A stretch of 64,000 nucleotides of DNA, taken from the NCBI GenBank assembly GCA_951406725.2, contig OX597831.1:27714001-27778000 (forward strand), written 5' to 3'. A program made the position numbers and the translations under genes. The DNA comes from Octopus vulgaris. Its lineage: Eukaryota. Positions within the stretch are counted from its first letter, which is position 1; every line of letters begins with the position of its first letter. This document shows positions 48,750 through 61,787 of the stretch, piece by piece. A model generated the notes under the pieces. The model was given only the letters and a program-made list of their open reading frames with translations, made no database searches and was not told the DNA's origin.

Positions 48750-49810
48750 CAAAAAACAATAAGTTCACACAATCGCTATTTAGTTGTGTATCCAACTTAC
48801 TTAATACAGCTTTGCATCTGCGAAACATAGAATTGTTCAGATCATTTATTACTGTTCTTGAGATTTTTTCCCCCAAAATTTGGCTAATAATGTTTTTAAA
48901 AAAATCATCTTTATTCTTTGGCTTACTACTTTGCACAGCTCTGCCTAATCTTTCCCAAAGGCTTTCGATGGGATTTAGGCGGGGCGATTGCGCCAGGGTC
49001 TGCATCAACCGAACTCTCTTAAACCTAATGTTATCTCTGACGAGGTGTGTTTCGGCTCATTGTATGGCTCGAAAGTCCAAGATCGGCCCAAATGCTTTCG
49101 GGCGTATGGAAGTATAGTCTTATCCAATATTTCTAGGTATGACTTACTATCCATAATGCCCTTGATTCGGATTATAGGACCGACGCCTTTTCCAGACGTC
49201 CCCCCCACACACACACACACACACCATCACACTTCTACCACCGAGCTTAATTGTAGATCGGATGCTTTCTGGATGATATTATTCGCCTATGCGCCTTCTT
49301 ACATTCTTCCTGCAATCACTGCCGAACAAGCTGAACTTTGACTCGTTCGACCACAACACATTCCACCAATCTTCTAGATTCCAATTCAAATGTTCTTTTA
49401 TGAACTGTATTTGAGCACACCGATTTTTTAAAGAAATGTATGGCTTTTACATGAGACTCTTCCTAGAATTCCAAATTCTTTGAGACAGTTATTTTTCTAT
49501 GGTAGACACTCCAATGTTAAGTCCATATTTTTGCCGAATTTTTTTTTTAAAAATGTCAACAGCGGTCATTTTCTTTTCTTTTTAGGAACAGTCTATGAAT
49601 CCATCTATCCATTCTTGCCGTTGCTTTTCTTGGTTGCCCAGGTCAAGGGCGGTCTTTATAATCATTAGTTTCTTTATAAAGACGGACAACATTGTAGACG
49701 GCTGTTTTAGAACATCCAACTTCGTTTGAAATAGCTTTATATGACCATTTCAGCCTGTTAAGCTGAACGAGCCCCGCTCTGGTTTCTAGCGGTTTATCTC
49801 TTACCGATCA
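48750..49810 (-). pseudogene. Decayed Tc1 (DD34E-type) transposase
   Basis: SYKAISNEVGCSKTAVYNVV (HTH), WNVLWSNESKF, TIKLGGRSVMV, GVGPIIRIKGIMDS, WTFEPYNEPKHTS, AQSPRLNPIESLW and SMFRRCKAV in the expected order; frameshifted. Confidence 0.9.
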
Positions 49811-60408: not shown

Positions 60409-60450
60409 ATATATATATATATATATATATATACATACATACATATATGT

Positions 60451-60790
60451 AGGCACAGGCCTGTCTACGTGGTAAGAAACTTACTTCCCAACCACATAAT
60501 TACGGGTTCAGTCCTACTGCGTGACACCTTGGTCAAATGTCTTCAAATATAGCCTCGAACCGACCAAAGCTCTGTGAGTGGATTTGGCAGACGAAAACTG
60601 AAAGGAGCCCGTTGTGTGTGTGTATGTGTGTATTTGACCACCGCCACTGCTTAATAACCGGTGTTGGTGTCTCTATGATCCCGTAACTTAGCAGTTCGGG
60701 AGAAGAGGAGCGATAGAATAAGTACCAGGCTTAATAAGTCCTGAGATCGATTTGTTCAATTAAAACACTTCAAGGTGGAGCCCCAGCATT
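60451..60790 (+). mobile_element. SINE family A, diverged
   Basis: Homology. Confidence 0.8.
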
Positions 60791-61037
60791 TTCATAACTT
60801 AGCGGTTAGTTAACATACAAGTCATGCGAACATGCCAGTAGTCTGCGATTTGGTTTGGTGGAGATTACCTTTTCAAAGCACCGAGTGTTAAACCACCTGA
60901 AAGTTGTGAACAGGTGAGACAAATCAACCCAATTCCCAGTGAGGAATGAACGGGAGACAACTCACTCCAAATCCCGTTCACTGCTAAATAAGAGTAATTT
61001 CCCTTATTTAACGGTTTTATTTCTTAGCGTTTTGTCT

Positions 61038-61100
61038 TAATAACTGATGAGATGCCGGAGCAGACTTCAGCTCCGGTATCCGAAACTCTGAGTTTTATTA
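61038..61100 (+). ncRNA. Type I hammerhead ribozyme, structurally complete
   Basis: Stem I UAAUAA/UUAUUA, core CUGAUGA, 11-bp stem II GAUGCCGGAGC/GCUCCGGUAUC(C) with an 8-nt loop, GAAA, palindromic stem III ACUC-U-GAGU, triplet GUU. Confidence 0.8.
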
Positions 61101-61410
61101 TGATCAATGGTTTCATTTTGTTGTTGACATACACTTCATGTTGGGCTACTGCCGTTCTTTAATATGTTGCCCTGGTAGTTTCTTGTAGGTAGGCATTGAT
61201 CTTCGGCTGCTATGATAAACCCTTCTGTTTCTGATTTTAAGCCAGAAGACACTAACCATTGATGGGTAATGGCTTTGTCAATATCAGAACTATTAACTCT
61301 CTTTAGGCATTTGTCATTGAGAGGTTTTTCTTGCCATTTATCAGTTAGAATATCTAAGGCAGCAGTTTTAGCACGGGTTTTTATACGCTTAGGTTTTTCT
61401 GCCCTTGTTT
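61099..61410 (-). pseudogene. R4/Dong-clade fragment (pre-CCHC/CCHC region)
   Basis: KWQEKPLN..DIDKAITHQWLVSSGLKSETEGFIIAAEDQCLPTRNY..PT*SVCQQQNETIDH matches R4/Dong LKxETEGFIxAAQDQ..CRxC..ETxxH. Confidence 0.85.
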
Positions 61411-61416
61411 CAAAAA

Positions 61417-61770
61417 GGAGTGAGGGTGGAAAGGTAAGTGCTGCCGGTCAATAATTTTGTTGGAAGGTGGGTGACTGTGGCGAAAATGGCCCGTAAACAT
61501 TCGCTTGTAGGCCAGAGCGATTGAGAGCAAGAAGGGTGCCTGTCTGAGGTGATCTTGGTAGTCGGGGTGACCATGATGTGTAAGGTGTCTTGGTTGGCCC
61601 TGGCTGGAAATCCCTCCCATGGGGGATTTTAATTGCTAAAATTTTCTTGTTAATTGTCATTGTTATTTTATTTTATTATTTATTCGATTTTTGCATTATA
61701 CCCCGCCTGTCCCTCGTATTGTCACTATTTGTTTTTATGTTCGGCCCTTGTGGCCAAAAAGAAGCGACTA
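61417..61770 (+). mobile_element. Tx1/L1-like LINE 3' end
   Basis: VRVER*VLPVNNFVGRWVTVAKMAR resembles Tx1-type ORF2 ends; T-rich UTR ending GGCCCTTGTGGCCAAAAAGAAG before (TAA)n. Confidence 0.5.
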
Positions 61771-61787
61771 TAATAATAATAATAATA

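Follow-up and report, generated by a model that had tools for sequence, protein, structure and literature searches.

The locus studied here raises the question of whether a hammerhead ribozyme and the hairpin-rich sequence in front of it form one repeat unit. We analyzed a window of 64,000 nucleotides of octopus DNA, i.e., the whole stretch, whose positions are used throughout. The original prediction drew a single 270-bp module ending in a hammerhead and read it as a retrozyme-like monomer or as the pLTR of a Penelope-like element (PLE) of a separate family. We consider it highly probable that the hammerhead is a clipped 112-bp Penelope-like end in a single-copy patchwork between two unrelated retroelement fragments, likely stitched by microhomology. 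The pieces are listed in Table 1.

Table 1. Pieces of the locus in the order of the window, followed by the loci of two related families.
Feature	Position or loci	Strand	Basis
Left neighbour, high-copy dispersed repeat, clipped at about 60789	60413..60790	+	32 further matches in the window; loose contig ends at 60789
Piece A, 348-nt retrozyme-like repeat, unit positions 211-353	60807..60949	-	39 non-self matches, 73-87%; alignment
Piece B, further incomplete copy from the 348-nt family, unit positions 218-254	60946..60980	-	alignment
11-nt linker	60981..60991	.	last 7 nt plus G60992 are an inverted copy of 61003-61010
3' UTR/pLTR fragment, Hydra-clade Penelope-like element, older subfamily	60992..61103	+	genome matches; ORF linkage
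Type I hammerhead	61038..61100	+	direct reading; full descriptor; compensatory changes across subfamilies
Internal R4/Dong-like non-LTR fragment, RT C-terminal region to mid CCHC knuckle	61100..61411	-	40 non-self matches, 90-95%
Youngest U4C Hydra subfamily	L056, L058, L059, L062, L064, L066, L071-L072, L074-L084; e.g. L078:3202-3277	- (example)	many near-identical copies, intact ORFs
348-nt U3-A8 family	L032-L050, L088-L091, L106-L135; e.g. L091:1490-1547	- (example)	two fixed 3' ends ~37 nt apart; two-armed insertions

The ribozyme itself was borne out. Stem I pairs TAATAA (61038-61043) with TTATTA (61095-61100), the core is formed by CTGATGA (61044-61050) and GAAA (61082-61085), and stem II has the claimed 11 bp (61051-61061 with 61070-61080, including one G-U). 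A single extra C (61081) lies on the 3' side of stem II before GAAA; stem III is palindromic with a loop of 1 nt, and the cut is predicted after 61094, the last base of GUU (61092-61094). That is, the sequence has the CUGANGA...GAAA...UH core, three stems and open stem I of a type I hammerhead. A type I descriptor requiring all three stems found three cores in the 64-kb window, including this one, and no full match in any of 30 shuffled windows. The second and third, at 63482-63445 and 24993-24953 (both on the minus strand), each belong to another family, and a looser candidate at 49037-49074 (+) failed the full descriptor. Self-BLAST agreed with the claimed dissimilarity to the other hammerheads of the window. 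Since the local Rfam scan of the locus reported no hammerhead model (one weak unrelated match) and the scan of the whole window was swamped by microsatellites (mostly matches to miRNA models, among 150 of 370 rows), we take Rfam to speak neither for nor against the hammerhead.

The single module did not hold up. Each of the three parts (hammerhead, hairpins and neighbour) matched a different repeat family; the identities and limits of these families at the locus were observed directly, and no genome match crossed any junction. When 60820-61115 was used as the query, the best 40 of 1386 candidates yielded 43 non-self matches, all in query positions 169-290; nearly all of them corresponded to query 173-284 (60992-61103), mostly at 87-95% identity, and none of the 43 reached left of position 169. 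The query 60770-60995 gave 39 non-self matches within 60832-60950 (73-87%, best 40 of 76 candidates), none of which reached the hammerhead. Likewise, 61095-61680 gave 40 non-self matches (best 40 of 2896 candidates), nearly all at 61100-61411, with 90-95% identity and nearly always 90-92%. In all three families, other copies ran past the breakpoints of the window with their own sequence. The hammerhead piece is flanked by junctions whose spanning motifs each occurred once in the 2.8-Gb genome, with two mismatches allowed on the left and one on the right. The reading as a retrozyme-like monomer was wrong for the module as drawn, which is composite and single-copy as a unit. A non-LTR retrozyme of 270 bp was rejected, as the genome searches and unique junctions gave no tandem or dispersed unit including the hammerhead.

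An R4/Dong-like neighbour was indeed present after stem I, and it overlaps the hammerhead piece by ATGA at 61100-61103, a microhomology of 4 nt. A relative of this neighbour (L099) has a 779-aa ORF with RVT_1 (E 9e-27), zf-RVT below the cut-off and an RPD..LID motif recognized by eye; it shows the layout of RT, CCHC knuckle and restriction-like endonuclease, and the clade is presumably R4/Dong. The sequence at 61412-61780 (+), which we presume by eye to be the 5'-truncated 3' end of another LINE, is joined directly to the R4/Dong-like fragment, ends in (AAT)n and had no match among the fetched loci. The left neighbour is presumably SINE-like.

We then placed the hammerhead piece in its lineage. 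It was identical to the majority of 28 copies at 108/112 positions. In other copies, the sequence upstream of the hammerhead is a TA/TG-rich 3' UTR preceded by an endonuclease reading frame (L023). In 6/29 hammerhead loci (L002-L030), such an endonuclease was present no more than 1.5 kb upstream and in the same orientation. A search with the L023 endonuclease returned 12907 candidates, the best 150 of which were scored, and a lineage hammerhead was found downstream, within 1.6 kb, at 28 of 36 endonuclease loci (L069 was left out as a duplicate of L087). Linkage to a PLE ORF had been named as a check, and the linkage of this hammerhead lineage to an RT-endonuclease ORF was observed directly. 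That is, the claim of a PLE pLTR of a separate family stands for the last 112 bp only, as a Hydra-clade lineage, and fails for the rest of the module.

In the endonuclease tree (rough bootstrap), the loci with the most window-like hammerheads share one supported branch. The order runs from CUGAUGA copies with a UTR of 0.8-1.1 kb to near-identical CCGAAGA copies with a UTR of 0.2 kb, and the window hammerhead is nearest to the CUGAUGA, long-UTR copies; within the lineage, the 3' UTR has thus shortened from ~1 kb to 0.2 kb. Intact elements carry the ribozyme twice, some 0.2-1.1 kb past the endonuclease gene and again ahead of the ORF. The young relatives L076-L079 carry a 717-aa ORF with direct or inverted 5'-truncated repeats ahead of it and (TA)n at the ends. 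The Hydra-clade length criterion is under 3 kb in the consulted part of PMC8557442, and 2591 nt separate the hammerheads of L076, a young copy; no full-length copy of the older subfamily of the window was among the retrieved loci, and its 3' UTR is longer than that of L076. The RT was linked to the older subfamily through partial copies (L053, L063 and L068) and the tree. A microsatellite lay downstream in 27/28 older-subfamily copies; the window copy has lost such ends.

The 717-aa ORF of L076-L079 (FDIVD, YKDD, IIY..YVG) is a single frame with an RT and then, at the C terminus, a GIY-YIG endonuclease, both identified by motif reading. Pfam returned no family for the RT fragment of the window, the L023 endonuclease or this ORF, and a protein atlas look-up for the ORF gave no result; the ORF has 837 homologues of similar length, and homologues bear PF26215 and PF28514. 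The L078 ORF contains RWK at residue 46 and DKT at residue 123, together with the CxCX5C linker and the CxxC and CxH of the endonuclease (residues 566, 669 and 700). CCHH is absent, with no cysteine between IIY and YVG. The lineage also shows the insertion traits of the Hydra clade, namely a (TA)n target, a pLTR hammerhead and 5'-truncated repeats in direct or inverted orientation. Judged by these diagnostic protein motifs, the lineage probably belongs to the Hydra clade of Penelope-like elements. The Neptune clade was rejected, as the motifs of the L076-L079 ORF fail its published description. Elsewhere in the window, 14804-14149 (-) is a decayed, distant Hydra-like RT fragment with 31-34% identity to the 717-aa ORF (E 1e-12).

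The GUU triplet and the bulge under stem II had been suspected of reducing activity. We collected 81 lineage hammerheads and tallied the 76 without indels: GUU occurred in 70/76, CC or CU before GAAA in 72/76, and ACTC-N-GAGT in 60/76. Because so many copies carry the first two, near-identical young ones included, GUU and the extra base are lineage traits rather than damage. In the 26 published Hydra hammerhead rows consulted (PMC8557442), GUU is present in 10/26 and a 1-nt loop III in 17/26. Stem covariation was assessed in 41 of the 76 hammerheads; 49 cells showed two-sided change against 21 +/- 3.3 after shuffling, an excess inflated by relatedness. Counted by pairs, two-sided change affected 8, no more than in shuffles (169/500). 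The exact 33-nt core-plus-stem-II pattern of the window hammerhead has 28 genomic copies, and its stem II is one pair beyond the family norm, an A-U pair found in 2/76 copies. The youngest subfamily bears the core CCGAAGA or CCGAUGA (U4C), as did 29/76 tallied hammerheads. U4C has been described as considerably reducing hammerhead activity in vitro (PMC3088659). The lineage is a natural ladder from canonical CUGAUGA (older) to CCGAAGA (youngest, near-identical), which makes it possible to test inside one lineage whether PLEs require an active ribozyme.

The hairpin part derives, as alignment shows, from a retrozyme-like family on the opposite strand, with a different hammerhead that is predicted just outside the window fragment. 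The limits of piece A are firm for 60833-60949 and weaker out to 60807, and its first base comes 3 nt beyond the point at which the family's ribozyme is predicted to cut; 98/117 positions were identical to the family majority. The 348-nt unit, built as the majority of 27 copies plus a linker, has 43% GC and no ORF. Its hammerhead is type I, with a 6-bp stem I, the core UUGAUAA (U3-A8), a 4-bp stem II, a palindromic stem III and GUC. The family thereby resembles retrozymes, whose units are non-coding, 150-450 nt long and equipped with a type I hammerhead. The majority sequence matched the descriptor, and 0/5000 shuffled units did. Among 36 ungapped copies (42 collected), TTGATAA was present in 27, U3 in 34 and A8 in all 36, while GAAA was retained in 16 and GUC in 22. 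The core pattern had 76 genomic matches against 4 for a control, and the full 33-letter motif had 4. U3-A8 is a known natural hammerhead variant, found in Schistosoma in the consulted part of PMC4209133. Covariation in this hammerhead was not above shuffles and gives no support, as expected for copies decayed from one ancestor.

We examined 44 loci of the 348-nt family. Hydra-ORF matches occurred at two, weak or short and outside the unit; head-to-tail junctions occurred at 22/44 and both orientations at 15/44. Among 57 arms, 25 were longer than one unit and none contained two complete hammerheads, the longest being 517 nt. The 3' ends of the arms fall into two clusters, one of 20 arms (unit positions 19-30) and one of 18 arms (unit positions 53-74). 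Both kinds of end are combined in six two-armed loci, and 19/57 arms end at a microsatellite. This pattern of ends is the Penelope tail footprint (PMC11167929; PMC8557442, in the part consulted). The majority unit, folded as a circle, gave z = -4.7 on either strand. All 27 aligned copies were 80-90% from the majority, suggesting that the family is likely extinct; no young copy was found, the best non-self match being 82% (best 40 of 1178 candidates). We regard the family as retrozyme-like, with self-cleavage and circular RNA predicted from its sequence. No RNA run was among the sequencing runs listed, which is no evidence on expression. The locus L037 (1274-1596 and upstream) has a Hydra 3' end tail to tail with a two-armed 348-nt copy, the two sharing a single TA tract. 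The two 3' ends ~37 nt apart, together with the two-armed insertions, agree with the suggestion that retrozymes of animals are carried along by PLEs.

The three stem-loops claimed at 60894-60916, 60947-60980 and 60985-61010 are all present. The CACCTG/CAGGTG hairpin, in piece A, occurs in the 348-nt family majority (5/18 copies by strict pattern). The 9-bp inverted repeat at 60947-60980, in piece B and on the A/B junction, was found in 0/18 other copies, and the 8-bp inverted repeat on the linker/Hydra junction in 0/28 other Hydra copies. Two perfect inverted repeats of at least 8 bp in 60930-61030 arose in 1/3000 shuffles, for a stretch chosen after it had been seen. Of the three hairpins, two occur at this locus alone and lie on junctions whose sequences were read directly; these two are likely snap-back repair scars, and the inverted copy of 61003-61010 in the linker is likely a snap-back insertion. 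Junction-spanning inverted repeats are a mark of snap-back SD-MMEJ, according to the part of PMC2943611 consulted. ATGA is found at both overlaps (A/B, 60946-60949; Hydra/Dong, 61100-61103), which may be chance. In addition, 60793-60806 repeats part of the SINE-like neighbour (~60684-60699), possibly a further templated insertion. Hairpin-rich "modules" beside a hammerhead should be viewed with caution, as they can be repair scars between unrelated repeats.

The window copy starts inside the 3' UTR and ends 9 nt past the cleavage site, the clipping having removed the tail along with the distal part of stem I. Pairing in stem I was predicted at 0.6-0.9 for 5/6 pairs in an 80-nt isolate and at most 0.01 in 149- and 311-nt contexts; for comparison, it was 0.5-0.8 in the intact L024 and 0.13-0.19 in the young L078, each in 150 nt. 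PLE hammerheads of similar build lacked monomer activity in the consulted part of PMC4209133. Since the distal stem I is lost, stem III is weak and no second ribozyme is nearby, the window hammerhead is probably inert.

We propose the following origin. The ribozyme would cut tandem transcripts of an intact Hydra-lineage element to unit length, probably acting as a dimer given its 1-nt stem III loop (by analogy with the consulted part of PMC4209133). Starting at either of two internal points, the RT-endonuclease would copy the unit RNA into (TA)n tracts; this would produce tails of two lengths, short and long, as well as arms that are inverted and 5'-truncated. These end footprints were observed directly, and the chemistry is modelled on PMC11167929. 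A 5'-truncated Hydra copy may have come head-to-head with an older retrozyme-like copy at the locus. Later breaks would have stripped the Hydra tail and joined the Hydra piece to the R4/Dong-like fragment via ATGA, and such repair may have left the two 8-9-bp inverted repeats that lie on the junctions. The pieces probably arrived independently, as decay differs (96% identity to the respective majority for the Hydra piece and 84% for the retrozyme-like piece), with the Hydra value biased upward by the choice of comparison copies for likeness to the window piece.

Could the 270 bp still be the monomer of its own retrozyme or pLTR family, with the hairpins part of a circular RNA fold? The hammerhead is genuine, the length falls in the retrozyme range (PMC7229834, consulted in part), and the suggested folding check came out in its favour, as the 281-nt module stretch (MFE z = -3.54) folded better than 200/200 shuffles. 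However, folding of the left part by itself gives z -2.09 (+) and +0.14 (-), stem I probability is at most 0.01 in the 149- and 311-nt contexts, the module ends off the cleavage site, its halves are different families on opposite strands, and the whole has no second copy. We regard this explanation as already largely refuted and give it very little credence. An assembly chimera of repeats, which we hold to be just as improbable, would suit a locus in which every part is a high-copy repeat and the right joint (61100-61103) is bridged by none of the listed contigs; however, 60735-61053, which holds the left junctions, was spanned in one piece, with 0-1 differences, by contigs from 3/4 DNA runs from different studies.

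Retention of the hammerhead for a host function, i.e., self-cleavage of a passing transcript, has a negligible probability in our view. Its core is intact, its stem II exceeds the family norm by the rare A-U pair, and its stem I forms in the 80-nt isolate; however, the 28 genomic copies sharing the exact 33-nt pattern indicate that intactness is expected at such divergence, the distal part of stem I is gone, and no partner ribozyme for a dimer lies nearby. We also considered that both pieces are arms of one Penelope integration from two RNAs, snap-back joined head-to-head, one arm running along a retrozyme-like RNA to its ribozyme-cut 5' end and the other along a Hydra RNA. Two-armed insertions in both families show such a head-to-head order, the predicted cut lies 3 nt ahead of the start of piece A, and both families end in microsatellite tracts, such that they may share an enzyme. 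However, the outer ends have neither a tail nor a (TA)n target, piece A ends about 15-20 nt before reaching the closest common 3' end, decay is unequal (84% vs 96%), and there is a single instance; we judge this explanation unlikely. If true, it would be a direct physical record of a Hydra enzyme carrying retrozyme RNA in trans and reading it to its ribozyme-cut end. The flagged hammerhead is in itself unremarkable, since this animal genome is rich in repeats and decayed Penelope ends are numerous in it.

Hydra elements with hammerheads have already been described, including in an octopus, and the window lineage adds a member. Compared with the consulted part of PMC8557442, the lineage shares with the C-terminal EN+ PLEs of the Hydra clade, including the octopus Hydra-1_Obim, the RWK, DKT, CxCX5C, CxxC and CxH motifs and the absence of CCHH. 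Also common are (TA)n insertion, a unit of ~2.6 kb (here in the young subfamily), a hammerhead near the 3' end, an ACTC-N-GAGT stem III and GUU (found in several of the families listed there), 5'-truncated arms in inverted orientation and alternative ends on a 30-40-nt scale. Its hammerhead does not have the sequence listed for Hydra-1_Obim, and the lineage is therefore a separate family. Unlike the families listed there, it has a longer stem II and a one-sided extra pyrimidine under stem II, where those families more often have a mismatch; its older subfamily has a TA/TG-rich 3' UTR of 0.95-1.1 kb, and its youngest subfamily has the CCGAAGA (U4C) core. With the minimal PLE hammerheads in the portion of PMC4209133 consulted, it shares a long helix II and a weak palindromic helix III. 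Those hammerheads are mostly single dispersed copies from truncated PLEs, like the window copy, with dimer use predicted; their extra nucleotide lies between positions 9 and 10.1, whereas the window copy has it on stem II's 3' side. The U3-A8 core reported there in Schistosoma is the core of the 348-nt family.

Metazoan retrozymes have also been described, and the 348-nt family adds a member. We found no literature on a cephalopod retrozyme; the supplements of PMC7229834, PMC4209133 and the 2026 preprint (10.64898/2026.07.22.740005) may list one. Within the consulted parts of PMC7229834 and that preprint, the metazoan non-LTR retrozymes have in common with the 348-nt family the unit length, a GC content such as its 43%, the lack of an ORF, a type I hammerhead (here with a 6-bp stem I, a 4-bp stem II and a palindromic stem III), head-to-tail junctions and a strongly self-paired predicted circle. 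The 348-nt family is unlike them in that none of the 57 arms has two complete hammerheads, the copies are decayed and the core is U3-A8. Finally, the junctions share with SD-MMEJ, as far as the consulted part of PMC2943611 describes it, short junction-spanning inverted repeats that include inserted bases and microhomology joints; SD-MMEJ was described there at induced breaks in Drosophila, whereas here it is read from one old genomic scar.
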